Below are positions 3,640 to 15,027 of a stretch of 64,000 nucleotides of DNA, in pieces (within the stretch, counting starts at the first letter, position 1; each line of letters begins with the position of its first letter). The notes beneath the pieces were generated by a model. The model made no database searches and was not told where the DNA came from. It saw only the letters and a program-made list of their open reading frames with translations. Source of the DNA: a bacterium HR29 (GTDB lineage: Bacteria > Chloroflexota > Dehalococcoidia > Tepidiformales > Tepidiformaceae). The position numbers and the translations under genes were made by a program. Location of the stretch: positions 841,602 to 905,601 of the forward strand of contig BEIF01000001.1 in assembly GCA_002898215.1 (NCBI GenBank), given 5' to 3'.

Positions 3640-4926
3640 ATGCGCGTGATCCATTTCGCCGACCTCCACATCGGCGTGGAGCGGTATGGGCGCCCGCTCC
3701 CGGATCGTCCGTGGAACTCCCGGGTGCAGGATTTCCTCGACGCGTTCGATTTCTTGGTCGATTACGCCATCGCCGAGGGCGCCGACGCCGTCATCTTCGC
3801 GGGGGACGCCTACAAGGACCGGGAACCGAACCAAACGTACCAGCGGGAGTTCGCTCGCCGCATCCGTCGGCTCTCCGAGGCGGGCATCGCGACCTTGCTG
3901 CTGGTCGGCAACCACGACCTCGGGGGCGCCGAGGGCCGCGCCCACGCCCTCGAGATCTACCGCGAGCTGGGCGTGCCCAACGTGTGGGTGGGCGATAACG
4001 CCTGGTTCGCCACGAACGGCATCCGGCCCATCCTTCTGCAGACCCGGAGCGGCCCCCTGCAGGTGGCCATCCTTCCGTGGCCCCAGATCGGCCGTTACAC
4101 GGCGCGCAACCCCGACGCAGCAAGCGAGCCGCTGGAGGCGGTGTTCGACCGTGTCCGTGCCGAAATGGCCAACGTCATCCGCCTCCAAGCCGAGAGCCTC
4201 GACCCCGACGTGCCCGCCATCCTAGCGGCGCACATCACCGTCGACGACCGCTTCGTCCTCGAGCGCCCGGGCAGCGAACAGCAGATGCAACTCGGGACCG
4301 CCCCGGTATTGTCCAAGGCGAGCCTCTCCGCGCATTCCTTCGATTATGTCGCCTTGGGGCATTACCACAACCGGGTGCAGCTCGACCTCCACACGCCCAC
4401 CTTCTACGCCGGCTCGTTGCAACCGGTCGACTTCGGGGAGGAGGGGGAGCGGAAGGGCTTCGTCGTGTTCGACCTCGACCCGCGGAGGCCCAAGGGCGCG
4501 CGCATTGGTGGCAGCGGCACGCCGCGCTTCGTGGACGTCCCGACGCGGAAGTTCGTAACAATCGAGGTCCGCCCGAAGGAGCCCGACCCCATGCCCGAAG
4601 TGCTCGCCGCCGTGGAGCGGCGGGACATCCGCGACGCGATCGTTCGGGTCACGGTCCACCTGGACGAGGACCAGCGTCAGCACTTCCACCCGTTCGAAGT
4701 CCGGCGCCTCCTCGAGGAGGCCCATTATGTCGTGCACGTCGCCACTCCCCTCCCCGAGCGTCCGCGGTTCAGCCTTCCCGTCGGCGTCGAGGTCCGGGCC
4801 CTCTCCCCCGTCGATGCCCTGGACCACTACCTCCGCGCTCGGAAGGTGCCCGATGCGCGGCGGGAGAAGCTGCTCACAGCGGCGCGCGAGCTGGTGGAGG
4901 ACACGTTGGGGAGCGAGAACGCGTGA
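3640..4926 (+). CDS. sbcD: Exonuclease SbcCD, nuclease subunit D (Mre11-family metallophosphoesterase)
   Basis: N-terminus MRVIHFADLHIG, plus GDAYK and GNHD phosphoesterase motifs. The stop overlaps the GTG start of sbcC. Confidence 0.88.
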   Translation: MRVIHFADLHIGVERYGRPLPDRPWNSRVQDFLDAFDFLVDYAIAEGADAVIFAGDAYKDREPNQTYQREFARRIRRLSEAGIATLLLVGNHDLGGAEGRAHALEIYRELGVPNVWVGDNAWFATNGIRPILLQTRSGPLQVAILPWPQIGRYTARNPDAASEPLEAVFDRVRAEMANVIRLQAESLDPDVPAILAAHITVDDRFVLERPGSEQQMQLGTAPVLSKASLSAHSFDYVALGHYHNRVQLDLHTPTFYAGSLQPVDFGEEGERKGFVVFDLDPRRPKGARIGGSGTPRFVDVPTRKFVTIEVRPKEPDPMPEVLAAVERRDIRDAIVRVTVHLDEDQRQHFHPFEVRRLLEEAHYVVHVATPLPERPRFSLPVGVEVRALSPVDALDHYLRARKVPDARREKLLTAARELVEDTLGSENA

Positions 4927-7490
4927 TCCCGCGGCGAATTCGGCTCCAGAACTTCCTCTCGTACCGCGAGTGCACGGTCGATTTCACAGGGCTCCACCTG
5001 GCCGTACTCTCGGGCGCCAACGGCCACGGAAAGTCGGCTCTGCTCGACGCGATGACGTGGGCCCTCTGGGGCGAGGCGCGTGGCGCACGCGACGCGGACC
5101 GCATCCGCGGAGACGGAACCGCCAAGGAGATGCTGGTCGATTTCGAATTCGAGAGCCACGGCGCGGTGTACCGGGTCATCCGGCGGTTTGTGCCCGGCAA
5201 AGGCTCCCGCCTCGACTTCCACCAGATTCTCCCCGACGGCACCGCCGTGCCCCTCGGTGGCTCGCGGATCACCGATACCGAACGGGAGATCGTCCGCCGT
5301 CTCCACCTCGACTACCAGACGTTCGTCAACAGCGCCTTCATCGCCCAGGGACGGAGCAACGAGTTCACCGCCAAGCTCCCCAGCGAGCGGAAGGAGGTGC
5401 TGCGGAACATCCTCGGCCTGGAGGAGTACGAGCTCCTCGCGCAGCGAGCAGCCGAGCTTCGCAAGGAGGTGCAGGGAGAGCTCCAGCGAGTCGAAACCCG
5501 AGTGGAGGAGCTGTCCGAAGCCACGAAGCAGCTCGACACGGTGGCGGAACAGCTCCGCGCGCTCGACGCGCAACGCACCCAGTTGGCCAACGACCTCGCA
5601 GCCGCCGAAAGGGAGCTCGCCGCCCTCCGCGAGGCCGAAGCCCGTCGGCAGGAGCTCGCTCGGCGCGTCGAAGACCTCGCGGAGCAGTGTGCCCGGCTCG
5701 CCGAGGCGCTCGAAGCAAACCGAAACGCCGAGCGCCAGAGCCTGGAGGATCTCCAGGCATGCGAGGCGGTGGCGGCAAAACGGACCGAGGCGGAAGCCCG
5801 GTACCTCGAATTGCAACGACTGCGACAGGAGGAGCAGGCGCTCGCCGAGCTCCAGCGAGCCCACCTTCGACTCTCCGAGCGGAAGCGGGAGTTGGAGCAC
5901 CAGCTCGACCTCGAGCGGCAGGGCCTCATCGTGCTCCTCCAGCAGAAGCAACAGAGCCTCGCCGATTGCCATGGGTACATTCGGGAGGCGGAGAAGACCG
6001 CCGCCGAACTCGCTGAGCTGGAAGCGCGTGCCCAGCAACGGGCGGAGCGGGAGAGCGCCATCGCCGACATGCGCCGGCGGGCCGAGGAGCTGCGCCGCGA
6101 AGCGGAGGGGAAGCTCGGCGAGGCGCGTACTCTCCGCACCCAGGCCGACGAGCTGAAGAGCCAGGAGGAGCAGCTCCGCGCCGCAGCCGGAGCTCCCGAA
6201 TGCCCAATCTGTCACCAGCCGCTCACCCCCGAGCACGTCGAGCGCGTTCTCCAGGAGTCGGCGGAGCGACGGCGGGCGATGGGCGACCGGTTCCGAGCGC
6301 TCCGCGCCGAGGCCAGCCAGCTCACCGAGGAGGCGGACGAAATCACCAAGGAAGCGGACCGCGCCCAGCAAGAGCTGGAAAAGGAGGCCCGCGCCGACCA
6401 ACAACGGCTTGTTCTCCTGGAGACGACCCGCCGGGCAGCGGAGGAGGCGAGCCGAGCGATCCCCACCCTCGAGGAGGAAATCCGAGCGACCGAGGAGCGC
6501 CTCGCGCGGGAGGAGTTCGGCGAGGCGATCCGTAAGGAGCTCCGCCACCTCGACGACGAGTTGGCAGCCCTCGGCTACGACGCTGCCCGCCACGAGACGC
6601 TGCGGAGCGGTATCGCCGCCCTTCAGGACGCCGAGGCAGCGTGGTTCGAGGTGCAAAGGGCAGCCCAGCAAGCTGCCTGGCTGAGGGACCGGCTCACCCA
6701 ACTCGCGGAAGACCGCCGCCGGCTCGAATCGGAGCAGCAGCAGACCGCAGCGCGCCTCTCCGAACTGCAGCAGACCCTCGCGACCTGCGAGGACGTCCGT
6801 CCGCGCCTCGAAGAGGTAGAAGCGCGTCGAGCATCCCTCCAGGCGGAGCTGAACGAGGCCAACACCGCCTTCGGACGGCTGGAAGAGCGGCGCCGGCTGC
6901 TGGAGGCGATGGCAGCCGAAGCGGCCGAGCTCCGCGACCGTCTCACCTCCCTGCGCGAACAAGCCGACCTCTACGCCGAGCTGGCGAAGGCGTTCGGTCG
7001 CGACGGCGTTCAGGCGATGCTCATCGACGAGGCCGTACCGCGCATTCGCGAGATCGCGAACACCCTCCTCGACCGCATGACCGGCGGTCGAATCCACGTG
7101 GACATTCGCACCCAGCGCGAGCTCGTCTCGAAGCAGGGGAAGCAGCAGGAGACGCTCGAAATCCGCGTGAGCGACGAGCTGGGCAACCGCGCCTACGAGA
7201 TGTACTCCGGAGGCGAAGCCTTCCGGGTCGATTTCGCGCTTAGGATAGCCCTTGCGAAGATGCTCGCCGAGCGCTCGGGTGCCACCCTGGCTACCCTGAT
7301 CGTCGACGAGGGGTTCGGGACGCAGGACCGAGACGGTATCGACCGGCTGGTGGAGGCCCTGAACGCCATCGCGCCGGAGTTCCGCCTCATCCTCGTCGTG
7401 ACCCATCTCGACGAGCTGAAGGAGCGGTTCGAGCGCCGGATCGAAGTGCAGAAGGACCCCGAGCGGGGCTCAGTCGCGCGGGTCGTGTGA
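4923..7490 (+). CDS. sbcC: Exonuclease SbcCD, ATPase subunit C (Rad50/SMC-like)
   Basis: GTG at 4923. Walker A (GANGHGKSALLDA), a long Glu/Arg/Leu coiled coil, a CPICHQP zinc hook near the middle, a C-terminal signature (YSGGEAFRV) and Walker B (LIVDEGFG). Confidence 0.9.
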   Translation: MIPRRIRLQNFLSYRECTVDFTGLHLAVLSGANGHGKSALLDAMTWALWGEARGARDADRIRGDGTAKEMLVDFEFESHGAVYRVIRRFVPGKGSRLDFHQILPDGTAVPLGGSRITDTEREIVRRLHLDYQTFVNSAFIAQGRSNEFTAKLPSERKEVLRNILGLEEYELLAQRAAELRKEVQGELQRVETRVEELSEATKQLDTVAEQLRALDAQRTQLANDLAAAERELAALREAEARRQELARRVEDLAEQCARLAEALEANRNAERQSLEDLQACEAVAAKRTEAEARYLELQRLRQEEQALAELQRAHLRLSERKRELEHQLDLERQGLIVLLQQKQQSLADCHGYIREAEKTAAELAELEARAQQRAERESAIADMRRRAEELRREAEGKLGEARTLRTQADELKSQEEQLRAAAGAPECPICHQPLTPEHVERVLQESAERRRAMGDRFRALRAEASQLTEEADEITKEADRAQQELEKEARADQQRLVLLETTRRAAEEASRAIPTLEEEIRATEERLAREEFGEAIRKELRHLDDELAALGYDAARHETLRSGIAALQDAEAAWFEVQRAAQQAAWLRDRLTQLAEDRRRLESEQQQTAARLSELQQTLATCEDVRPRLEEVEARRASLQAELNEANTAFGRLEERRRLLEAMAAEAAELRDRLTSLREQADLYAELAKAFGRDGVQAMLIDEAVPRIREIANTLLDRMTGGRIHVDIRTQRELVSKQGKQQETLEIRVSDELGNRAYEMYSGGEAFRVDFALRIALAKMLAERSGATLATLIVDEGFGTQDRDGIDRLVEALNAIAPEFRLILVVTHLDELKERFERRIEVQKDPERGSVARVV

Positions 7491-7573
7491 GCGCCCCGGC
7501 GCGCGTTGCCGCGCTCCCGCCCGGTTGGTAGATTGGCGATGGACGCCCGCGACGGTGCGGGCGGCGAGTCCGC

Positions 7574-7647
7574 GGCAGGGTAGCTCAGCTGGTCAGAGCG
7601 CACGACTCATAATCGTGAGGTCGGGAGTTCGAGCCTCCCCCCTGCTA
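7574..7647 (+). tRNA. tRNA with anticodon CAT (elongator Met, or Ile2 if lysidine-modified); CCA not encoded
   Basis: Manual cloverleaf: acceptor ggcaggg/ccctgct, D arm gctc..gagc, anticodon stem cacga/tcgtg with loop ctCATaa, T arm gggag-ttcgagc-ctccc. It lacks the three G-C pairs in the anticodon stem that mark initiator tRNA. Confidence 0.85.
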
Positions 7648-8223
7648 CGACCGTTCAGGAACCGCGTCCCCGGTGCAGAGGTGCCAGCCCTGAGCGAGAA
7701 GTGTCCGCGCGAGGCGTGCGCCGGGGCAGTGTGCCACGACCACCCGACCATCGAAGACCCCGTAGACGCGCGTGAACCGCTTTCCGTCTCCGGCGATGGA
7801 CTCCCAGAGGTCCCGGAAAGCGGCTCGTTCGGCTGGCGTGGGTTGGACAGGCCTGTCCCCGGGCAGGTCGCGCCACGACACGGCGCGCAAGAGCGCGGCC
7901 ACCGACTCCACGCCGAAGCGGACTTCCTCGACCACCGTTGCCGGCAGGCCGAGCTTCGCGGCCTGGTCGGCGACGCACCGCATCACTGCTGCCTCCCAGG
8001 CGTCGACGCGAGACCGCGTCGGCGCGGACAGGGCCGCCATGGCAGCGGCGACCTGCTCGTCGCGCAGGGCGTCCTCCATCGCCTCGACGGCCTCGAACAG
8101 CCGCTCGGCGAAGCCCTCGGGCGTCTTCGACAGGAGGATTCGGCGGTCATCGACCGCGACGACCCGACGGGCGCCTTCGACGCCCCGTTCAGCCAGCCAG
8201 ACGTCCAACCCTTCCGGTCTCAT
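7645..8223 (-). CDS. Hypothetical protein (192 aa, soluble, no motif recognised)
   Basis: Start overlaps the stop of the upstream universal stress protein (ATGA), which suggests co-translation. Composition is protein-like and not Arg/Pro-skewed. Confidence 0.5.
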   Translation of the reverse strand: MRPEGLDVWLAERGVEGARRVVAVDDRRILLSKTPEGFAERLFEAVEAMEDALRDEQVAAAMAALSAPTRSRVDAWEAAVMRCVADQAAKLGLPATVVEEVRFGVESVAALLRAVSWRDLPGDRPVQPTPAERAAFRDLWESIAGDGKRFTRVYGVFDGRVVVAHCPGARLARTLLAQGWHLCTGDAVPERS

Positions 8224-8750
8224 CCCGTCTCCGCCACGGCGTGGGGCCCGACCACGAGCACCGGGACCGGGGCCTGACGGATGACGCGTTCGGCTACGCT
8301 CCCGAAGAGCGCATGAGCGAGGCCGGCGCGGGCCCGCGTGGCCATGGCGATGCCATCGGCGCCCAGCCGCGCCGCCGCAGCGGCGATGGCAGCCGCCGTG
8401 TCCTTCGCACCATCGACCTCCACCCGCACCACCACCCCCGGAAAGTACCGCCGTGCGACCTCGCGCAGGTAGTCCTCACGCTCCGCGTGCACTCGTGCGA
8501 GGGCCTGCGTTCGGTCCTCGGCTGGCCTCGGTCGGGGCTCCTCGACCGTGAGTCGCTGCCCCATGACGGTCCCGGCAGGCGCGATGGGTTCGCCCAGCGG
8601 CGCCGTCGAAGTGGGCACGGCATGAACCTCGTCGGGATGGACCACGTGGTAGAGGACGACGTCGGCATCCAGAGTCCAAGCGAGCGCCGCGATCGTCGGG
8701 CACACACGTTCGCCCGCCTCGGTTCCATCGAGCGGTACGAGGATTCGCAT
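8220..8750 (-). CDS. Universal stress protein (UspA family)
   Basis: MRILVPLDGTEAGE N-terminus and the C-terminal G..GSVAERVIRQAPVPVLVV motif typical of Usp. Start chosen at ATG 8750, because the track ORF extends upstream into non-protein-like sequence. Confidence 0.8.
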   Translation of the reverse strand: MRILVPLDGTEAGERVCPTIAALAWTLDADVVLYHVVHPDEVHAVPTSTAPLGEPIAPAGTVMGQRLTVEEPRPRPAEDRTQALARVHAEREDYLREVARRYFPGVVVRVEVDGAKDTAAAIAAAAARLGADGIAMATRARAGLAHALFGSVAERVIRQAPVPVLVVGPHAVAETG

Positions 8751-8894
8751 TGCCCTGCCCTCCCCTGTGATGGGCGGTAGCGTACCGGAACCGGCATGCC
8801 GATGCGACGCCGAACGACGGGTCGCGCGGGTACCGAACGGACACCGTTTCGGCGGTACCGGCAGGCGCCCAATGTGGTGTAGGATGACAGCGCG

Positions 8895-11800
8895 GTGTCG
8901 TTGGCAATTCCAACGGCGGAGGGCCTGCTGCCGGGAGCGGGGCGCGTGCCCCGCCTGCCGCGTGACCTCCTGCCGCGGCCGCGGCTCATCGACCGGTTGC
9001 ACGCTGCCATCGGGAGCGGGCTCATCGTCGTTCAAGCGCCTGCTGGATACGGCAAGACGACGCTGCTCGCGAGCTTCGTCAGCGATAGCTCGCTCCAGTT
9101 CGAGCCTATCTGGCTCACCGCCGACGCGACCTGCCGAACGCAGGAAGGGTTCGCCGACCGGTTCGCGGCAGCGGCCCTCGGTGCGGACGCCTGGGCACCG
9201 GTGAGCATCACGCTCGGCGAGGACTATCGTTCGTACCTCGCCGCCGTGCTTCACCGGTGGCGCGAGCGGTGCGACCGGCCCCCCATCATCGTGCTCGATG
9301 CGCTCGAGGAGCTCGGCGCCGATGCACCGGCATGGGCGCTTGTGGACTGGCTGGCGGAGGCCGTGCGCGATTGGGGCGAACTCGCGCTCGTGTCGCGCGA
9401 GCCCATTGCCCGAAGGGCGCTGGACCGTCGTCTCGCCTCGGGCGAATCGCTGGTGCTCGGCCCGAACGAGCTCCGGTTCACCGCAGAGGAGTTGGAAGAG
9501 CTGTGTCGCAGACGGGAAGCCGCCGTCGACCCGCAGGAGTTGCTCGAGCTGACAGGGGGCTGGCCCGTGGCGGTCATGAGCATCCTGCGGGGGGCGGTTC
9601 CCCTCGAAGGAGCGAGGCGGGCGCTCGCCGGAAGCACCTGGGACCGGTACCTGCTGGCCGAGGTCTGGCGGTCGGTTCCGAGCCCCCTACGGCCGGTGCT
9701 CCTCCGCCTTGCGCTCCTCCCGGCATGCGAACCCGATGTCGCCGTGGCTGTCGTCGGCTCCGAGGCGTGGGAGGCTGCAGCGCGCTGGGCCCAGGAGGTT
9801 GGGCTCATGGCCGAACCGCACGGGCGCGGCGGACTGCGTCTGCTCCCGCCGCTGCGCGACTTCCTGAGGCATGAGTTCGGGCGAGTCGACCCGGCGGGGA
9901 TGCGGGAAGCGTCCCGGCTTGCGGTCGAGGCGTACCTGTTTCGGGGCAACGCCTTCCTCGCGCTTGCAACCGCAACGGAGCTCCGCGCCGAGGAGGAGGT
10001 GGAGCGCGTCCTCCGTTCGCACGCTCGGGAGCTCATCGAGCGGGGCGCGTTCGACCTGCTCACGAGAGCGTTCGCCTTGGTGCGTGCGGAGCGGTTGGAA
10101 GGAGACGCGGTCCTCCGGGGCCTCCGCGCCCGAGCGTGGTCCCTGGGCGGCGATGCACGGCAGGCGCTCGAGGAGGGGCGAGCGTTGGCCGAGGACCCGT
10201 GCGCGCCGGCGGAGGCGCGGTTCCACGGGCTGCTTGCCGCCGTTCGTGCCGCCCGCTTACTCGGCCGCCAGCGCGAGGCGCTCGACCTCCTGCAGCGGGC
10301 GGCGGAGCTGGCAGGCCAGCTCGACACCGCGGCCCAGCGAGAGCTCGCATGGTATGAGGCCCATACCCTCCTCGCCCTCAATTCCGAGTTCTCGCGGGCT
10401 GAACGGCTGTTGCTCTCCGTAGCTCAGGCAGAGATGCAAGGACCGCTCGCCTTGCTGGCGCAGTCAGCGCTCGGCCAGTCGCTCGGCATGCGAGGTGACA
10501 TCCCCCGCGCCATCGAATGCCTCTCGAAGGCTGCCGTCGGATGGAGAGCTCTTGAATCCCTCGGCAATCTCCCCTGGGTCCTCAACAACCTCAGCATGGC
10601 TCACCTCGCTGCCGGCGATACGGCCAGCTCCGTGGAAGCGGCGAAAGCGGCGCTTGCCGCGGCGCGGGCCGCTCGCAACCGGAGAGCGTGCGCTTATGCG
10701 ATGGCCTCACTGGGCGACGCCCTTCTCGCGGACGGAGCCGCCGATGCTGCCGTCGCCTGTTACCGAAAAGCACTCGACGAGTGCCAGGAGCGCGTCGCAG
10801 ACGAGGCCCTCGCGGCGATGGTCATCGCCGGACTGTCGGCCGCGTCCCTCGCCCGCGGCGACCTCGTGCAGGCGGACGTGTACGCCAAGCGCGCGAACCT
10901 TATCGCGGAGACGCTCGGCAGTCCGTACGAACTCGCCGTGTGCCGGCTCCAGGCGGGGATGTTAGCCAGCGCGGCTGGCAACCACGTTGCGGCCCTCGCC
11001 GCCTGCGACGAGGCCGTGGCCCTAACGAAGCGGATCGAAGCCTTCGGGCTCCTCCGTCAAGCCCTGTACCGCCGCGCGATGGCCGCCTTCCGCGCAGGTA
11101 AGAGGGCTGCCGCCGAGGCCGACGTTCACGAGCTGGCAACCCTGCTCGAACAGCCGTGGCAAGCGGCCGCGGTGGCGCTTCTGGCCCGGGAGGACCCGCT
11201 CTTCGCCCAGTGGGCTGCCTCACGGGACGTCCTTCCTCCCTTCGCCCGTGAGCGTCTCCGGACGGCCACCTTCGCCGCCGGCACCGAACCGGACCCCGGG
11301 GCCTTCGCGCCCTACCCGTCGATCCGGGTCGAGTCCCTCGGGAAGCTCATAATCTACAAGGAGGGACACGTCGTTCCCGAGGCCGCCTTCGCGAGCGCCA
11401 AGGCGATCGAGTTCTTCCTCCTCTTCCTGGCCCGTCGGGAAGGGCTGGCCAAGGAGCAGGCGGTCGTCGAGCTGTACCCCGACTTGCCGCCTGCGCGCTG
11501 CAACAGCGCCTTCCACTCCAACCTGTACCGGGTCCGGAAGGCCCTCTACCCCGAGTGCATCGTGAAGCGGGGGCACACCTACCTACTGAATCCCGACGGC
11601 GAATTCGTGTGGGATGTGGACGAGTTCCGGCGCACGCTCGAAGCTGCCCGCCAGGCGCCCGCTGGCTCGCGCAAGCGGGCGGAGCTCTTCGAGGAGGCGG
11701 TGCGCCGGTACCACGGTCCCTTCGCCGCGACGGTGCAATCCGAATGGGCCGCCACCCTGCGCGCGGAACTGGACCGAGGGGCCGTGGAAGCGCTGGCTAC

Positions 11801-12056
11801 GCTCGCCGGATTCCACGCCGCCCGTGGCGAGTTCGAGACGGCTGCCGGCTATCTGGAGCGGGTCCTAGCCGCCGATCCCCTCAACGACGAGGCCGCCTAC
11901 CACCTGGCTCGGTTCCGGGCACAGGGCGGGAACGCCATGGCGGCGCTGGCCGTTATCGACCGCTTCGCGGAGGTCCTCCGTCGCGAGCTGGGAGAGGAGC
12001 TCCCCGAGCGGCTGCGCCGGCTGCGGCGGGCGATCGCGACGGGCGCTGCCAGCTGA
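8895..12056 (+). CDS. Large transcriptional regulator. N-terminal STAND/LAL-type P-loop NTPase, central TPR/helical-repeat sensor region, C-terminal SARP-type winged helix plus BTAD domain
   Basis: Walker A in LIVVQAPAGYGKTTLLASF, preceded by the PRLIDRL typical of MalT/LAL regulators. About 550 aa of Ala/Leu-rich repeats follow. The C-terminus IRVESLGKLIIYKEGHVV..AKAIEFFLLFLA..FHSNLYRVRKAL is an OmpR/SARP wHTH. It is followed by WDVDEFRRTLEAAR..AELFEEAVRRYHGPF..WA..LRAELDR..YHLARFRAQGGNAMAAL.., which is BTAD. Confidence 0.8.
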   Translation: MSLAIPTAEGLLPGAGRVPRLPRDLLPRPRLIDRLHAAIGSGLIVVQAPAGYGKTTLLASFVSDSSLQFEPIWLTADATCRTQEGFADRFAAAALGADAWAPVSITLGEDYRSYLAAVLHRWRERCDRPPIIVLDALEELGADAPAWALVDWLAEAVRDWGELALVSREPIARRALDRRLASGESLVLGPNELRFTAEELEELCRRREAAVDPQELLELTGGWPVAVMSILRGAVPLEGARRALAGSTWDRYLLAEVWRSVPSPLRPVLLRLALLPACEPDVAVAVVGSEAWEAAARWAQEVGLMAEPHGRGGLRLLPPLRDFLRHEFGRVDPAGMREASRLAVEAYLFRGNAFLALATATELRAEEEVERVLRSHARELIERGAFDLLTRAFALVRAERLEGDAVLRGLRARAWSLGGDARQALEEGRALAEDPCAPAEARFHGLLAAVRAARLLGRQREALDLLQRAAELAGQLDTAAQRELAWYEAHTLLALNSEFSRAERLLLSVAQAEMQGPLALLAQSALGQSLGMRGDIPRAIECLSKAAVGWRALESLGNLPWVLNNLSMAHLAAGDTASSVEAAKAALAAARAARNRRACAYAMASLGDALLADGAADAAVACYRKALDECQERVADEALAAMVIAGLSAASLARGDLVQADVYAKRANLIAETLGSPYELAVCRLQAGMLASAAGNHVAALAACDEAVALTKRIEAFGLLRQALYRRAMAAFRAGKRAAAEADVHELATLLEQPWQAAAVALLAREDPLFAQWAASRDVLPPFARERLRTATFAAGTEPDPGAFAPYPSIRVESLGKLIIYKEGHVVPEAAFASAKAIEFFLLFLARREGLAKEQAVVELYPDLPPARCNSAFHSNLYRVRKALYPECIVKRGHTYLLNPDGEFVWDVDEFRRTLEAARQAPAGSRKRAELFEEAVRRYHGPFAATVQSEWAATLRAELDRGAVEALATLAGFHAARGEFETAAGYLERVLAADPLNDEAAYHLARFRAQGGNAMAALAVIDRFAEVLRRELGEELPERLRRLRRAIATGAAS

Positions 12057-12064
12057 AACCCTCC

Positions 12065-12098
12065 CGCGAGAATTTCGCGAGAAGCAGCTCCGTAGCCT
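12065..12098 (+). promoter_or_regulatory. Direct repeat CGCGAGAA x2 with exact 11-bp periodicity (12065-12072 and 12076-12083), followed 9 nt later by a -10-like TAGCCT (12093-12098). Candidate SARP-type activator site and promoter for the small ORF
   Basis: Repeats read directly. Their geometry matches what is established for SARP targets: direct repeats on one helix face, just upstream of the -10. Confidence 0.4.
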
Positions 12099-12143
12099 CC
12101 AGCTGCCCAGAAAGAGAGAACCGGGCACGCGAAGGAGGAACGG

Positions 12144-12233
12144 ATGAAGGCACGACTCATCACCGCCGCGCTGGCCGCCGCCGCTCTCGCCGCCGTGGCC
12201 CTGGGTGGTGCCGCACCCTGGATGCACTACTAG
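12144..12233 (+). CDS. Small ORF (29 aa), MKARLITAALAAAALAAVALGGAAPWMHY. It is essentially a signal peptide or single TM helix plus a 5-7 residue aromatic tail. Not in the ORF track (under 60 aa)
   Basis: Strong SD (GGAGG 12134-12138, 5-nt spacer) before the ATG. Third-position GC is high. It lies 88 bp downstream of the regulator on the same strand. Confidence 0.45.
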   Translation: MKARLITAALAAAALAAVALGGAAPWMHY

Positions 12234-12265: not shown

Positions 12266-12871
12266 ATGAATGCCAACGATGCCGCGCGGGGGCTCGCGAG
12301 ACTTCGGCGGATGTCTCGCGAGCCCTTGGCATTGCTCGGCGCACTCTCCCTCTTCTTCCTGCAAGACCTCGCGATATCGCGAATCGGGCCCGAAAGCTCG
12401 CTGGCATGGCTCCGGGCTTCCGCCTTCTTCGCGGCGACCCTCCTGTTCGTCGCTTTGGCCCTCGTCTTGCGGCGATACGTCGCCGCATGGGTCGTGGCCG
12501 CCGGCATCCTGATGAACTTCATTCCCATGGCAGCTCACGGCGGGCTGATGCCCATCGCCTACGAGGTCATCGCGGCGACCGGCGAATTCCCAGAAGTCAC
12601 GCCCGCGACCATCGGCTCCCAAGTGGAGAACTCGAAGGATGTCGTCCTCTGGCGTGAGGACGTGCGCTTCTACTTCCTCTCCGACCGGTTCTTCGTATCG
12701 GTGCCCGTCTACGGCCCCAACATCTACAGCTTGGGGGACTTCGTCGCCTTCGGTGGCGTCGCGCTCGGCGTGGCCGAGCTAGCCCTCTACGCTGCGACCG
12801 GTAACCTGCCCCTCGCGGCGGCGGCACGCTCCCTCCGCCGCCTTCCGAAGCGAGCTCCCTCCCCGAGCTGA
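12266..12871 (+). CDS. Polytopic membrane protein, DUF5317-like
   Basis: Hydrophobic segments, plus NFIPMAAHGGLMP and YSLGDFVAFGGVAL, which resemble the conserved DUF5317 blocks. The start is uncertain: ATG 12266, or ATG 12311 (MSREPLALLG..). Confidence 0.6.
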   Translation: MNANDAARGLARLRRMSREPLALLGALSLFFLQDLAISRIGPESSLAWLRASAFFAATLLFVALALVLRRYVAAWVVAAGILMNFIPMAAHGGLMPIAYEVIAATGEFPEVTPATIGSQVENSKDVVLWREDVRFYFLSDRFFVSVPVYGPNIYSLGDFVAFGGVALGVAELALYAATGNLPLAAAARSLRRLPKRAPSPS

Positions 12872-12943
12872 GCCCAAGGGTCGCTGCTCGAACTTCTCAA
12901 CTATCGTAAACCTCTCGATGATTCCCCTTCCCCGATAAGTTTT

Positions 12944-12962
12944 TTGTGGTAGCCTAGCTTCG
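12944..12962. promoter_or_regulatory. Weak DtxR/IdeR-like iron box candidate (ttgtggtagcctagcttcg) in the AT-richer region upstream of the ABC importer
   Basis: 12 of 19 matches to the palindromic consensus TTAGGTTAGSCTAACCTAA as I recall it, with the core TAGCCTA intact. It lies 43 bp upstream of ATG 13005. Confidence 0.2.
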
Positions 12963-13004
12963 GCCGGCCAAGCATTCCGAACCGAGGAGAGGCATTCGAC
13001 GACG

Positions 13005-14021
13005 ATGCTCCGCCAGTTCCGTTTCGCGTCTCGGAAACGGCTTCTCACCCTCACCATCGCCGTCGTCGCTACCGCAGCCCTTGCCGCCTGCGGGGGCGAC
13101 GACGCCGAGCCCACACCGGCCGTCACGCCGACCGCGGCCGCGGCGACCGAAACGGCGGCCGCGGAGCCGACGCCCGCGCCCGCCTTCCCCTTGACGATCA
13201 CCGACTCCTTGGGCCGGAGCGTCACCATCCCCGCGAAGCCCGAACGGGTGGTGGCGATGAGCCCCTCCGTGGTGGAGACGCTCTTCGCCCTCGGCGTCAC
13301 ACCGGTAGGACGCCCCGAGACGGCGAAGTACCCGCCCGAGGCCCAGAACGTGGAATCCTTCGGCACGAGTTACCAGCCGAACCTCGAGCGGATCGCCGGG
13401 ATGCGGCCCGACCTCGTGATCGCCGATGCGACCATTCAGGCCCAACTCGTTCCCGCCCTCGAGGGCCTCGGAGCGCCGGTGGTAGCTATCGATTTCAGCG
13501 GCGTCGACCGGGTCATCGAATCGCTGCGGACCATCGGCCGCCTGGTGGGCGTGCCGGAGAAAGGCGAGGAGCTGGCCAAGGAGATCGAGGACCGCATCAC
13601 TGCTGTCACCAGGAACCTCCCCGCACAGCGGCCGAAAGTAGTCGCCATCATCGCCGCGGGCCCCGAGCAGTACTTCGCAGCCAAGCCGAGCTCCTACATC
13701 GGCACCATCATCGAGAAGCTCGGGGCCGAGAACATCGTCTCGGAAGACGAGCCCGTGGGCCGGGTCGCAGGCTACACCAACCTCAGCCAGGAGCGACTGG
13801 TCCAGGCCAACCCCGACGTCATCATCTTCATCAATCCGGTTCCGGGCGCGCCGCCGCTCTCGCAGACACTCCGAAACAACCCGGCCTGGGCGGGCCTGAA
13901 GGCTTTCCAAGAAGGGCGCGTGTTCGACGCCGATCCCGTGATTTATGTCCAGTCCGCCGGGCCGCGAGTCGTGCAGGCCATCGATGAGCTCGCCAAGCTC
14001 TTCTATCCGAGCAGCCGCTGA
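13005..14021 (+). CDS. ABC transporter substrate-binding lipoprotein, iron-siderophore/cobalamin (FecB/BtuF, PBP type 8) family
   Basis: Lipobox LAACGG after a signal peptide. Mature part has SVTIPAKPERVVAMSPSVVETLFALGV..RPDLVIA, typical of Peripla_BP_2 proteins. Confidence 0.85.
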   Translation: MLRQFRFASRKRLLTLTIAVVATAALAACGGDDAEPTPAVTPTAAAATETAAAEPTPAPAFPLTITDSLGRSVTIPAKPERVVAMSPSVVETLFALGVTPVGRPETAKYPPEAQNVESFGTSYQPNLERIAGMRPDLVIADATIQAQLVPALEGLGAPVVAIDFSGVDRVIESLRTIGRLVGVPEKGEELAKEIEDRITAVTRNLPAQRPKVVAIIAAGPEQYFAAKPSSYIGTIIEKLGAENIVSEDEPVGRVAGYTNLSQERLVQANPDVIIFINPVPGAPPLSQTLRNNPAWAGLKAFQEGRVFDADPVIYVQSAGPRVVQAIDELAKLFYPSSR

Positions 14022-15027
14022 GCCGAGGTTCGGGTTCGCCGGGAGCCGGGGCCGCGCCGCGGCGTGGCTCCGGCTCCTTCTGCTTACGGCCCTCCTCGCA
14101 CTCGTGATGATGGCCGCCATCGGCACGGGCCCGCTCCTCTTCTCTCCCTCGGAGGTCGTGCGGGCGCTCGTCTCTTCCCACGACTCCCTCGCGCACACCG
14201 TCGTCTGGGACCTCCGCCTCCCTCGCGTGCTGCTGGCGGTCTTCGTGGGGGCGAATCTCGCGGTGAGCGGAGCGCTCCTCCAAGGGGTGACACGCAATCC
14301 CCTCGCCGATCCTTACCTCCTCGGCATCTCCGCTGGCGGCGTCTTCGCCGCCGTCGCCACCCTCACCGTGCTCCCGGGCATCGGCCCCGAATGGCGCGCC
14401 GCGGTAGCGTTCGGGGGCTCCTTGGCGGCAGGCGGGTTCACCTATCTAGCCGCCTGGAAGGGAGGCATCTCGCCGACGCGGCTCATCCTGTCGGGCGTGG
14501 CGCTCTCGTCCCTCCTCACCGCCTTCACCTCGACCCTCCTCGTCACATCCACGACCTCAGCGCAGATCGCCGTCAGCTGGTTGGTCGGCGGGTTCTTGGG
14601 CCGTGGATGGGACCACTTCGCCTGGCTTTGGCCGTACTCCGCTGCCGGGCTTTCGGGAGCGCTGCTTGCGTCCCGGCACGTGAACATCATCGTCCTTGGC
14701 GACGAGGTCGCCACCAGCCTCGGACAACGGGTCGAGCGGGTACGCCTTCTCCTCGTGGCTGTGGCGGCACTGCTCGCCGGGAGCGCGGTCTCCGTCGCCG
14801 GGCTGATCGGGTTCTTCGGGCTGGCGGTGCCGCACATCGCGCGGTTCCTCTTCGGCTCCGACTATCGGCTCGTCATCCCGGCCTCGGCACTCCTCGGCGC
14901 CCTCCTGATGGTCGTTGGCGATACGGCGGCGCGCACCATCCTCGACCCCCGCGAGCTGCCGGTCGGCGTCCTCACCGCGGCGATGGGGGCGCCCTTCCTG
15001 CTCTACCTCGTGCGGAGGCGGGCATGA
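13984..15027 (+). CDS. ABC transporter permease, FecCD/BtuC family
   Basis: VWDLRLPRVLLAVFVGANLAVSGALLQGVTRNPLADPYLLGISAG is the FecCD signature region. The start is uncertain: ATG 13984 overlaps the SBP gene, and there is no in-frame start after 14021. Confidence 0.8.
   Translation: MSSPSSSIRAAAEPRFGFAGSRGRAAAWLRLLLLTALLALVMMAAIGTGPLLFSPSEVVRALVSSHDSLAHTVVWDLRLPRVLLAVFVGANLAVSGALLQGVTRNPLADPYLLGISAGGVFAAVATLTVLPGIGPEWRAAVAFGGSLAAGGFTYLAAWKGGISPTRLILSGVALSSLLTAFTSTLLVTSTTSAQIAVSWLVGGFLGRGWDHFAWLWPYSAAGLSGALLASRHVNIIVLGDEVATSLGQRVERVRLLLVAVAALLAGSAVSVAGLIGFFGLAVPHIARFLFGSDYRLVIPASALLGALLMVVGDTAARTILDPRELPVGVLTAAMGAPFLLYLVRRRA

Follow-up and report, generated by a model that had tools for sequence, protein, structure and literature searches.

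Three adjacent genes on the forward strand of bacterium HR29, encoding a large, putatively ATP-switched activator, a very small peptide that is either membrane-bound or secreted, and a DUF5317 membrane protein, constitute, as judged by comparison of related loci, a cassette that is kept across Chloroflexota. The cassette lies in a 64-kb window, by which we mean the whole stretch of DNA that was analysed. Among the loci compared, the linkage of regulator, micro-ORF and DUF5317 holds over deep divergence. The triad was found in all 16 close loci that included upstream DNA, and also in the distant loci L018 (where the regulator is 25% identical), L024, L026, and L027. An all-against-all comparison of genes revealed that only the regulator and DUF5317 are common to all loci. 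The nearest relatives of HR29 are Dehalococcoidia MAGs; the host organisms are uncultured.

The micro-protein gene

The micro-protein gene is located at positions 12144 to 12233 (+ strand), separated from the stop codon of the regulator gene on the same strand by an 87-nt gap. Its 29-aa product, MKARLITAALAAAALAAVALGGAAPWMHY, consists of MKAR, a 16-residue hydrophobic helix, and the tail GGAAPWMHY. A Shine-Dalgarno sequence, AGGAGG (12133 to 12138, +), is present 5 nt before the ATG, and GGAGG is retained in related loci. The ORF is not annotated in HR29. Five variants of the micro-protein have been gene-called in public data, none of them with a name, and no curated family was matched by any of nine micro-proteins.

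Comparison of homologues revealed that changes in the micro-ORF concentrate at the third codon position, as in one comparison with 1, 0, and 12 changes at the first, second, and third positions, respectively. The synonymous and non-synonymous codon differences were 12 and 0 between L008 and L010, 15 and 2 between L002 and L012, and 15 and 6 between L005 and the window. The length and the stop position are conserved in 14 distinct sequences, and the peptide motif survives where the DNA is no longer alignable. At the level of sequence, this pattern demonstrates a genuine, translated gene of 29 codons whose protein is under purifying selection. A small ORF with a strong Shine-Dalgarno sequence had been proposed as a gene in a first-pass annotation of this DNA, and the selection pattern, together with a homologue in every related locus, bears the proposal out; the search it had called for, for a conserved short ORF downstream of regulator orthologues, found one in 16 of 16 related loci. 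Each sequence feature that the annotation had listed was found in the DNA. It is very improbable indeed that the ORF is a spurious Ala-rich product of high-GC DNA, as the annotation had allowed, or an upstream ORF that acts in regulation irrespective of the amino acids it encodes. Ala-rich ORFs are common in high-GC DNA, this one had escaped annotation in HR29, and the hairpin that follows it is attenuator-like. However, the excess of synonymous change, the conserved length, stop and Shine-Dalgarno sequence, and the persistence of the peptide motif beyond DNA alignability all contradict both versions. An overlapping gene on the opposite strand left no sign in the frame plot, and the substitutions follow the + frame. 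The HR29 genome, so far noted solely for a PET hydrolase, gains by this analysis a clearly translated 29-aa gene.

A candidate SARP-type promoter and its regulator

Eight bases past the regulator stop (12056) begins a candidate SARP box (12064 to 12085, +), made up of two 11-bp direct repeats, cCGCGAGAatt (12064 to 12074) and tCGCGAGAagc (12075 to 12085), which share the core CGCGAGA and occupy the −35 position. The octamer CGCGAGAA accordingly occurs at 12065 to 12072 and at 12076 to 12083, 11 bp from start to start, and the pattern can also be written as TCGCGAGA-N3-TCGCGAGA. The exact motif CGCGAGA-N4-CGCGAGA is present once in the 64-kb window, against 0.03 occurrences expected. A −10-like hexamer, TAGCCT (12093 to 12098, +), lies 9 nt after the second octamer and 7 bp after the 3′ 11-mer. 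SARP targets have direct repeats 11 or 22 bp apart, with the 3′ repeat about 8 bp from the −10 and overlapping the −35, and the afs box of AfsR is formed by two 11-bp repeats overlapping the −35, with 8 contacted bases each (PMC10936776). On comparison of sequences, the stretch from 12064 to 12098 has this geometry, which the first-pass annotation had pointed out from the octamer repeat and the TAGCCT downstream.

The geometry is conserved in related loci. The repeats are nearly invariant in 16 of them, which comprise 14 distinct sequences with diverged flanks; TAnnnT is found at the same offset, 9 nt past GAGAA, in 14 of the 14 distinct clade sequences; and the repeats, the −10 and the micro-ORF occupy equal relative positions in all 16 related loci with upstream DNA. 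No sigma-70 −35 consensus is present at the cassette promoter. A scan for consensus promoters and terminators, which counted only hairpins with a loop of up to 8 nt followed by a T-run, found neither element. The missing −35 and promoter matches are expected for an activator-dependent promoter. Regulators of other lineages accompany other repeats (TGGCGAG with a spacing of 11 bp; TTTGGAG or TTTGTAG with one of 12 bp). Every such change of the repeat, also where the regulator is only 25% identical, goes with a change in the recognition helix. From the geometry and the conservation of the box, the predicted activation of the peptide gene by its neighbour regulator is well founded. An operator conserved so exactly makes the regulator-operator pair directly testable, or reusable as a genetic part. 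Between the −10 and the Shine-Dalgarno sequence, at the predicted transcript start, lies a 5′UTR stem-loop (TGCCC / GGGCA; 12104 to 12127, +). A stem of variable sequence could be discerned by eye in most of the 14 sequences compared, whereas minimum free energy folding gave few; it may serve as an mRNA stabiliser.

The regulator gene (8895 to 12056, +) encodes 1053 aa, in which a MalT-like STAND NTPase is followed by a TPR sensor and a C-terminal SARP module; NCBI lists the product, at 100% identity, under the name 'HTH-type transcriptional regulator MalT [bacterium HR29]'. The NOD, a P-loop NTPase with a winged-helix domain, extends over aa 18-452 (8946 to 10250, +). It matches MalT in PDB entry 8bob (E 8.6e-9 over aa 20-393), the P-loop families AAA_16, NACHT, and NB-ARC (aa 30-160), and, in precomputed data, PF25873 (WHD_MalT); the NCBIfam MalT match is partial, covering aa 18-452 with a score well below the full-length cutoff. 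TPR_12, TPR_MalT, and TPR_2 of Pfam mark the TPR sensor region at aa 521-745 (10455 to 11129, +).

The C-terminus consists of an OmpR-type wHTH at aa 809-906 (11319 to 11612, +), with the recognition helix NSAFHSNLYRVRKAL, and of a BTAD at aa 907-1047 (11613 to 12035, +; Pfam PF03704, E 4.4e-17). The wHTH thus directly precedes the BTAD, the arrangement that defines a SARP module. An AF2 model of the module (pLDDT 93.9) has a wHTH built of a beta-sheet, three helices, and a beta-hairpin. Its best Foldseek matches were AfsR (8hvr_I and 8k60) and EmbR (2ff4 and 2fez), with E values from 1e-10 to 1e-9 and TM scores of 0.68-0.77; the match to AfsR 8hvr_I reached E 9.6e-11 and TM 0.74/0.77 over 251 columns. 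Pfam Trans_reg_C is sub-threshold in the window protein and passes beside BTAD in homologues of the same architecture. The modelled structure demonstrates a SARP fold for the regulator, and the earlier description of a STAND-TPR protein ending in a SARP domain is confirmed by a complete module. No GerE/LuxR-type HTH was matched in a Pfam scan of the regulator. Of the 1053 residues, the module takes up 809-1047, behind the NOD and TPR regions. In small SARPs, and in large ones with a C-terminal NOD and TPR, it is N-terminal, and in this respect the regulator is unlike any studied SARP. A PDB profile search with the wHTH only returned designed beta-propellers, an artefact of one short motif; the profile of the whole C-terminus and the fold search were decisive.

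The arrangement recalls AfsR-AfsS of Streptomyces coelicolor, where the small ORF afsS adjoins afsR, the gene of its activator. Both systems have matching SARP folds and a small ORF as the regulated gene. In AfsR, too, a STAND-type NOD and a TPR region share one polypeptide with a SARP module, and at its target promoter, as here, a weak −10 is preceded by two 11-bp direct repeats that overlap the −35 (PMC10936776). The order here, however, is NOD-TPR-SARP in contrast to SARP-NOD-TPR in AfsR, with a NOD of the MalT-like kind; the small ORF encodes a hydrophobic peptide of one helix and not AfsS, a DUF5317 gene comes next, and the host belongs to Chloroflexota and not to Actinomycetota. With MalT and the LAL proteins the regulator shares the N-terminal P-loop NOD with a winged-helix domain, the TPR-like sensor, and the C-terminal DNA-binding output, except that a full SARP module (wHTH and BTAD) takes the place of the LuxR-type HTH. 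MalT itself binds direct-repeat arrays at promoters that have no −35. SARP-type promoter activation, which has been studied only in actinomycetes, would, as predicted here, extend to Chloroflexota with an inverted domain order.

DUF5317, the most constant partner of the peptide

The third gene (12266 to 12871, +, with an alternative start at 12311) encodes a 201-aa membrane protein with 4 predicted TM helices, in which a loop of 65 aa, placed outside the cytoplasm by the prediction, is conserved. Its reading frame was evident in a GC3 frame plot, and its sole Pfam match is DUF5317 (PF17248; E 4.6e-17, 62.8 bits against a gathering cutoff of 25). This gene had been overlooked in the first-pass annotation, as had the hairpin at 12290 to 12325 and the 5′UTR hairpin at 12104 to 12127. 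The family comprises 977 representative clusters at E ≤ 1e-3; its invariant residues are Q33, N84, G93, M95, D140, S155, G157, and D158. In the AF2 model (pLDDT 83.5), the invariant residues are predicted to lie in or beside the extracytoplasmic loop, and the cytoplasmic segments appear short. No fold relative of the model was found in the PDB (best E 1.3), and a literature search for DUF5317 returned no paper mentioning it. For this family of about 1000 sequence clusters, the cassette provides a first concrete genomic context and a testable partner. The motifs GGxMP, SKDxxL, and SxGD had resembled S26/S24 boxes and raised the idea of a signal-peptidase relative, which was dropped, there being no PDB relative. 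The micro-ORF as a split-off first DUF5317 helix or a frameshift was also rejected: its orientation, basic end first, is opposite to that of the N-terminal helix in longer members; this helix occurs together with a micro-ORF in L018 and L024; and the stop codon is conserved in all loci.

A 13-bp GC-rich hairpin (GGGCTCGCGAGAC-N10-GTCTCGCGAGCCC; 12290 to 12325, +) begins 57 nt past the micro-ORF stop, inside the 5′ end of the DUF5317 frame. Most of the 14 sequences have a hairpin of comparable strength at the corresponding position; that of L013 is weaker. In the sister clade, 95.6% of the cells pair, 3 pairs show compensatory changes, and the covariation exceeds that of 497 of 500 shuffles. 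No Rfam family matched either of the two hairpins at threshold. The hairpin in the window has no U-tract, which makes a terminator function uncertain.

In the nine distant loci with DUF5317, the micro-ORF was found upstream of it in seven, and in L018, L024, and L026 the two genes abut or overlap. In L023, L029, and L030, the micro-ORF and DUF5317 have no MalT-SARP regulator adjacent, and in two of the seven cases no regulator stands beside the micro-ORF. The more distant MalT-SARP regulators are adjoined by other genes. DUF5317 without a micro-ORF was observed in L025 and L028. These distributions suggest that the peptide gene follows DUF5317 and not the regulator, with DUF5317 as its most constant partner, which shifts the likely role of the peptide toward a membrane module.

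Proposed mechanism and competing explanations

In the reading that we favour, and whose chances we judge to be evenly balanced, the SARP regulator activates an operon whose micro-protein, inserted N-in/C-out, cooperates with DUF5317 on the outer side of the membrane. We infer the course from activator binding to peptide-DUF5317 contact as follows. [quoted passage not shown] The transcript would start near 12105 with the small 5′ stem-loop, followed by the strong ribosome-binding site and the 29-aa micro-protein. The hairpin after the micro-ORF probably ends or stabilises most transcripts, so that the micro-protein would be made in excess, and DUF5317 would be expressed by read-through past it. 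Inserted N-in/C-out, the micro-protein would place its conserved small-residue helix face and the G-A-A-P-aromatic junction at the outer leaflet, where it could meet the invariant polar cluster of DUF5317, either as a partner subunit or as a substrate; these two roles cannot be separated, since DUF5317 has neither a fold relative nor a literature. The ligand of the TPR sensor would be something other than the peptide. Against the membrane module, the read-through-limiting hairpin, the very strong Shine-Dalgarno sequence, and the triplicated genes of L023 suggest a large excess of peptide over DUF5317, which would fit a released peptide better than a stoichiometric subunit. Furthermore, DUF5317 is also found with no micro-ORF, and it often has HD-GYP genes as neighbours; its core role may thus be independent of the peptide.

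The HD-GYP genes bear on another possibility, that the outer loop of DUF5317 senses the tail, be it free or still anchored, and that DUF5317 is a small receptor signalling to, for example, HD-GYP c-di-GMP phosphodiesterases, with the regulator setting expression only. HD_5 (HD-GYP) genes lie next to or overlap DUF5317 in 4 of the 9 distant loci (L024, L025, L026, L030), a sensor kinase gene is located two genes downstream in L018, and the invariant polar residues face outward in the model. However, no HD-GYP gene was present among the cassette-flanking genes of the window or the genes common to the clade loci, the short cytoplasmic segments offer little for contact with a partner, and none of the three longest family members checked is fused to a signalling domain. 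We regard a receptor role as rather doubtful.

That the micro-protein is a membrane-active toxin or bacteriocin-like peptide, with DUF5317 as its immunity protein, seems distinctly improbable. Such a pair would be suited by the order of the genes, in which a small peptide of high hydrophobicity comes before a polytopic membrane protein, by the tight activator-dependent expression predicted here, and by the multiple copies in L023. Yet exporter and processing genes are absent, the peptide is neither amphipathic nor cationic, DUF5317 is found without the peptide too, and the cassette, which occurs in single copy and in synteny, shows deep conservation across lineages instead of a patchy distribution. 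PADLOC gave no match and viral contigs contained no DUF5317 relative; on the same two results, an anti-phage STAND system was also set aside.

The agr locus combines the AgrD pro-peptide with the polytopic AgrB and has an activator-dependent promoter with direct repeats. The cassette resembles it in that the gene of a small membrane-associated peptide stands beside the gene of a small polytopic membrane protein, with a promoter that likewise has direct repeats and is predicted to depend on an activator. Unlike agr, it has neither a histidine kinase nor a LytTR regulator, the gene order is different, and DUF5317 gave no AgrB match in Pfam and no fold relative in the PDB.

The first-pass annotation had proposed an RRNPP-type design for the regulator and the peptide, and this did not hold for the length and relationships of the receptor. 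As in Rap-Phr, PlcR-PapR, Rgg-SHP, and AimR-AimP, the gene of a cytoplasmic TPR protein adjoins a 20-50-aa ORF, whose product has basic residues at the N-terminus, then a hydrophobic core, and at the C-terminus a short tail. The 29 aa of the micro-protein are within the 10-100 aa of an RRNPP pro-peptide, and the 87-nt distance between the adjacent genes is in the RRNPP range (PMC10075063). The receptor, however, has 1053 aa against the 250-500 aa of RRNPP receptors (PMC10075063), and includes an NTPase switch and a different DNA-binding domain, that of SARPs. None of Rap, Rgg, NprR, PlcR, PrgX, and AimR appeared among the whole-protein PDB sequence matches or among the 50 fold matches listed for the C-terminal module. 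Also unlike RRNPP systems, the hydrophobic core leads to the tail with no pro-region in between, a conserved membrane protein is predicted to be co-transcribed, and the host phylum is Chloroflexota.

We consider it unlikely, on these differences and on those that follow, that the peptide acts as an autoinducer, its C-terminal 6-10 residues (e.g. APWMHY) being released by signal peptidase or DUF5317, accumulated, re-imported, and bound by the TPR region, so that the STAND switch is turned on and the same promoter activated. The MalT-type sensors have small molecules as their known ligands. No second SARP box was found elsewhere in the 64-kb window or in any locus, and so no output genes are evident. 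The tail GAAPFQSW is unchanged over 5-15 synonymous differences per pair (L002, L008-L012, L016), the opposite of pherotype diversification, and the peptide tracks DUF5317 even where no regulator is adjacent. In L027 and L029, the hydrophobic helix runs straight into A-P-W, the Pro coming directly after it and no small-residue (AxA-type) site lying by the tail. In L018 and L024, the N-regions are 20 residues long. Neither pair of homologues, by its sequence, appears to fit a simple signal peptide. For an autoinducer speak the n-h-c layout and the possible GGA/AP site of the window micro-protein, with G-G-A/A-P and A-G-A/A-P satisfying the −3/−1 rule in the window clade, and the tails that are constant within clades and different between them (APWMHY, APFQSW, APWGFF, APWMWG, QDMWPI). 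A high output is suggested by the strong Shine-Dalgarno sequence, the 5′ hairpin, and the post-ORF hairpin.

Broader still, and quite unlikely in our estimate, would be peptide signalling throughout Chloroflexota, with a 27-49-aa pro-peptide cut at G-A-A-P by DUF5317 as a new juxtamembrane peptidase, and an aromatic oligopeptide of the APWMHY/APFQSW type sensed by the STAND-SARP TPR region in a positive loop. If true, it would to our knowledge be without precedent, both as an RRNPP-like circuit outside Bacillota and as a case of a STAND transcription factor shown to have a peptide for its ligand. A released signal would open peptide communication in Chloroflexota, a phylum for which we know of none. 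Genes of the kind needed for re-import were seen at two distant loci only: at L027, an SBP_bac_5 gene adjoins the regulator, and at L023, three peptide genes in tandem, all behind separate repeat promoters, precede a DUF5317 gene that is followed by an Opp-type importer.

The regulator and its locus

The 1053-aa regulator ORF (+ strand, stop at 12056) is 100% identical to a "bacterium HR29" protein named MalT at NCBI, where the organism itself is entered as unclassified. Its N-terminal 450 residues resemble the P-loop NTPase and winged helix (NOD) of MalT (PDB 8bob, E = 8.6e-9; partial NCBIfam MalT match), and Pfam placed TPRs at residues 521-745 and a BTAD domain at residues 907-1047. Pfam detected no DNA-binding domain in the window regulator; in homologues of the same architecture, Trans_reg_C passes directly ahead of BTAD. 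The AlphaFold model of residues 785-1053 (pLDDT 93.9) comprises a sheet, three helices and a beta-hairpin wing followed by a helical domain. Its top PDB fold matches were the SARP domains of AfsR and EmbR (AfsR, 8hvr_I: E = 9.6e-11, TM 0.74/0.77 over 251 columns), and the remaining ones were generic TPR structures with E above 1e-4. The first-pass annotation was therefore correct in stating that the protein ends in a SARP domain. Automatic annotation already includes the combination of MalT and SARP, under the JGI name "MalT/DNA-binding SARP family", and we found no study of it in the literature. More distant regulators with MalT-NOD, TPR and C-terminal SARP parts lie directly 5' of genes for large secreted proteins of the Peptidase_S8 or PQQ-repeat type (related loci L019, L020-L021 and L022); thus the architecture is general and its local targets are varied.

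Direct reading recovered every sequence feature described earlier for the region: the octamer CGCGAGAA at 12065-12072 and, 11 bp on, at 12076-12083, a −10-like TAGCCT (12093-12098), a Shine-Dalgarno AGGAGG (12133-12138), and a 29-codon micro-ORF on the + strand from the ATG at 12144 to 12233. The next real gene by GC3 frame plot and Pfam, unmentioned in that description, encodes a DUF5317 membrane protein (about 12266 to 12871, same strand as the micro-ORF). The nearest genomic relatives are two Dehalococcoidia MAGs, whose regulators are 82% and 40% identical to that of the window, and 15 further loci came from searching metagenomes with the DUF5317 protein. All 16 loci with upstream DNA (14 distinct sequences, the window counted) share an identical order. 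The regulator gene end is followed by two or three copies of TCGCGAGA that recur every 11 bp; 9 nt further on comes TAnnnT, then a short stem-loop and GGAGG, and after these an ORF of 28-29 codons, a strong hairpin and DUF5317. Both the short ORF downstream of the regulator and the direct repeats are kept in all 16.

The genes 3' of the cassette (12939-15027) encode an ABC importer of the iron-siderophore or cobalamin type, with a Peripla_BP_2 binding protein and a FecCD permease. Since this synteny is limited to the closest clade (L001, L003, L005), the importer is probably unrelated. Between the regulator and an SbcC-like ATPase gene (4077-7490), two overlapping candidate ORFs (7525-8780) had no Pfam or PADLOC match.

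Promoter repeats and RNA hairpins

In SARP target promoters, direct repeats are spaced at 11 or 22 bp and about 8 bp separate the 3' repeat from the −10, and the AfsR box consists of two 11-bp repeats over the −35, the first 8 bp of each being contacted by the protein (PMC10936776). The SARP-site geometry claimed for the window agrees with these boxes: two 11-mers, each with eight conserved bases, at 12064-12074 and 12075-12085, and a −10 starting 7 bp after the second. A promoter scan found no −35 consensus in the micro-ORF promoter. The 64 kb contain a single exact copy of CGCGAGA-N4-CGCGAGA, where shuffles predict 0.03, and two-mismatch versions occur there at chance frequency. The repeats and positions T1, A2 and T6 of the −10 do not vary across the 14 distinct sequences, whereas divergence is seen in the spacer and flanks. 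In distant cassettes the repeats differ from those of the window clade, and the recognition helix differs too: TCGCGAG with an 11-bp period and helix CNSAFHSNLYRVR in the window clade, TGGCGAGCA at 11 bp in three pairs with QRSFFHSNLHRLR in L026, TTTTGGAGCC at 12 bp with VRLRFKNAIYRLR in L018, and TTTGTAG at 12 bp with MKMRFKTNMYRLR in L024. From these sequence features, the adjacent regulator very probably binds the repeats and activates the micro-ORF promoter. The closest known parallel in regulatory logic is AfsR-AfsS, where a large STAND-SARP protein activates an adjacent small ORF via two 11-bp repeats; the domain order of AfsR is reversed relative to the NOD-TPR-SARP order found here, which is MalT-like. 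L026 (3690-3910) has three copies of the pair TGGCGAGCA-N2-TGGCGAGCA, one every 43 bp, and a GA-rich (GAGA/GAAA) leader of about 60 nt separates the pairs from the micro-ORF.

A short stem between the −10 and the Shine-Dalgarno, different in sequence each time, was seen by eye in most of the 14 sequences (window: 12104-12108 paired with 12123-12127) and was recovered by minimum-free-energy folds in only a few; it is probably the transcript 5' end. Nearly all 14 have a GC-rich hairpin of 12-16 bp, 40-60 nt past the micro-ORF stop (window: 12290-12325), which is shorter and interrupted in L013. In the clade whose peptides end in QSW, the stem ATCGCCCG/CGGGCGAT has zero synonymous variation although it lies inside the DUF5317 reading frame. 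In its inner stem 95.6% of cells pair, both partners have changed in three pairs, and the covariation of 0.209 compares with 0.136 in shuffles (exceeded in 3/500). The other clade has a wholly different stem sequence; the constraint therefore acts on RNA structure. A T-rich tail follows the hairpin in a few loci and is absent in the window, and neither hairpin matched an Rfam family. The post-ORF hairpin could terminate some of the transcripts or stabilise their 3' end, leaving more peptide message than DUF5317 message. It overlaps the part of the DUF5317 gene that encodes the N-terminal tail, which is positively charged and poorly conserved (window 12266-12330; equivalents in L002, L006, L008-L012 and L016), and may also gate DUF5317 translation, because the sole in-frame start codon of L006 lies inside it.

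The micro-protein and DUF5317

Nearly all peptides have one of two tail types, MKARLITAALAAAALAAVALGGAAPWMHY (variants ..PWMDY, ..APIMHY and, in L005, MKARMLTAALTIAALVAVAVGGAAPWMHY) and M(T/A)R(L/F)..(hydrophobic)..LAGAAP(F/Y/I)QSW, plus one outlier (..TGPAPFMTW). Pairwise nucleotide differences are mostly at third codon positions, with 12 synonymous and 0 non-synonymous codon differences between L008 and L010, 15 and 2 between L002 and L012, and 15 and 6 between L005 and the window. The length is 28 or 29 codons in all pairs, and length and stop position are constant. The micro-ORF is thus evidently under selection at the protein level, and hence translated. The synonymous excess and fixed length and stop rule out both a spurious ORF and a leader ORF of irrelevant amino-acid sequence. 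Five variants are gene-called in public data, none of them named, and the window copy is not called; none of nine micro-protein variants matched a curated family.

The DUF5317 family comprises 977 representative clusters at E ≤ 1e-3, 18 of them close to the window's, and we found no paper mentioning it. Its model (pLDDT 83.5), for which no PDB fold relative was found, contains four TM helices, the third and fourth joined by a 65-residue loop that includes a small beta-sheet. By our reading of the positive-inside rule, both termini would be cytoplasmic and the conserved loop outside. The family-wide invariant residues (Q33, N84, G93, M95, D140, S155, G157 and D158; P96 and K124 nearly so) are all in this loop or in outer helix halves. 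The basic N-terminal residues of the micro-protein predict N-in/C-out insertion, which would put its conserved positions (A14, L15, A16, A19, G22, A23, A24, P25) and aromatic tail level with those residues. Their shared position suggests that the micro-protein contacts DUF5317 directly, as subunit or substrate. The pair matches no described system.

Distant loci and the role of the peptide

The comparison took in nine distant DUF5317 genes with about 30% identity to that of the window. A micro-ORF lies directly 5' in 7 of the 9 (none in L025 and L028), with tails ..GGGAPGAMGGSDGGG (L018), ..GAGAPVDGGGIGH (L024), ..AAGAQDMWPI (L026), ..ALAPWGFF (L027), ..TVAPWMWG (L029), ..AAAAPFIRG (L023) and ..SGAGARWY (L030). 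Downstream of a regulator of only 25% identity (P0014) in L018 lie repeats, an ORF for a single-helix protein of 49 aa with the end ..LGGGAPGAMGGSDGGG, and DUF5317. A MalT-SARP regulator accompanies four of the seven (L018, L024, L026, L027); L030 has classical N-terminal SARP regulators nearby, and L023 and L029 have no adjacent regulator. Yet more distant MalT-SARP regulators adjoin secreted-protease or other genes instead, and only the regulator and DUF5317 were common to loci in an all-against-all comparison. Because the micro-ORF stays with DUF5317 even without an adjacent regulator, DUF5317 is its most constant partner and the regulator its usual, non-obligatory controller.

The first-pass annotation had proposed a secreted pro-peptide sensed by the TPR regulator as an RRNPP-type receptor. 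The adjacent TPR regulator, the n-h-c layout, possible cleavage sites (GGA↓AP or AGA↓AP), clade-specific tails and features indicating high expression would suit such an autoinducer loop. So would L023 (2880-3365 and 4742-8474), where three tandem near-identical micro-ORFs (…TKLSWIVTLVAMTLATVAAQSPFF) each follow three CGGCGAG heptamers of 11-bp period and a fourth, different one lies ahead of DUF5317, with the genes of an Opp-type ABC importer (SBP_bac_5 and two permeases) directly 3'; L027 also has an SBP_bac_5 gene. In L023 no regulator lies within 4 kb upstream, hence there is no helix to compare. The RRNPP assignment failed, however, on receptor length (PMC10075063) and on the receptor homology tested. 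Moreover, no second SARP box is visible in the window or in any locus, so output genes are not evident; Pro directly follows the helix in L027 and L029; the N-regions of L018 and L024 are 20 residues long; the tail has stayed fixed through many synonymous changes instead of diversifying; and the peptide tracks DUF5317, not the regulator. We therefore rank first, at about even chances, a membrane-resident partner or substrate, and place the autoinducer loop second, as unlikely. As a whole, this is a SARP-type activator cassette in a new phylum and of a new architecture, with cargo of no assigned function; there is a modest chance of something much more novel.

HD-GYP (Pfam HD_5) genes adjoin or overlap DUF5317 in 4 of the 9 distant loci (L024 5128-5538, L026 4607-5260, L030 4862-6241, L025 2091-4028), which suggests a link of DUF5317 to c-di-GMP turnover; one is a GGDEF-HD_5 protein gene whose end overlaps the DUF5317 start. 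A signal sensed by DUF5317 and linked to these proteins is ranked third and seems rather improbable. Directly 3' of DUF5317, L018 (7455-7763) and L024 (4590-4919) carry ORFs of 102 and 109 aa with weak, sub-threshold matches to Pfam Frankia_peptide (RiPP-precursor-like; E 0.004-0.008).
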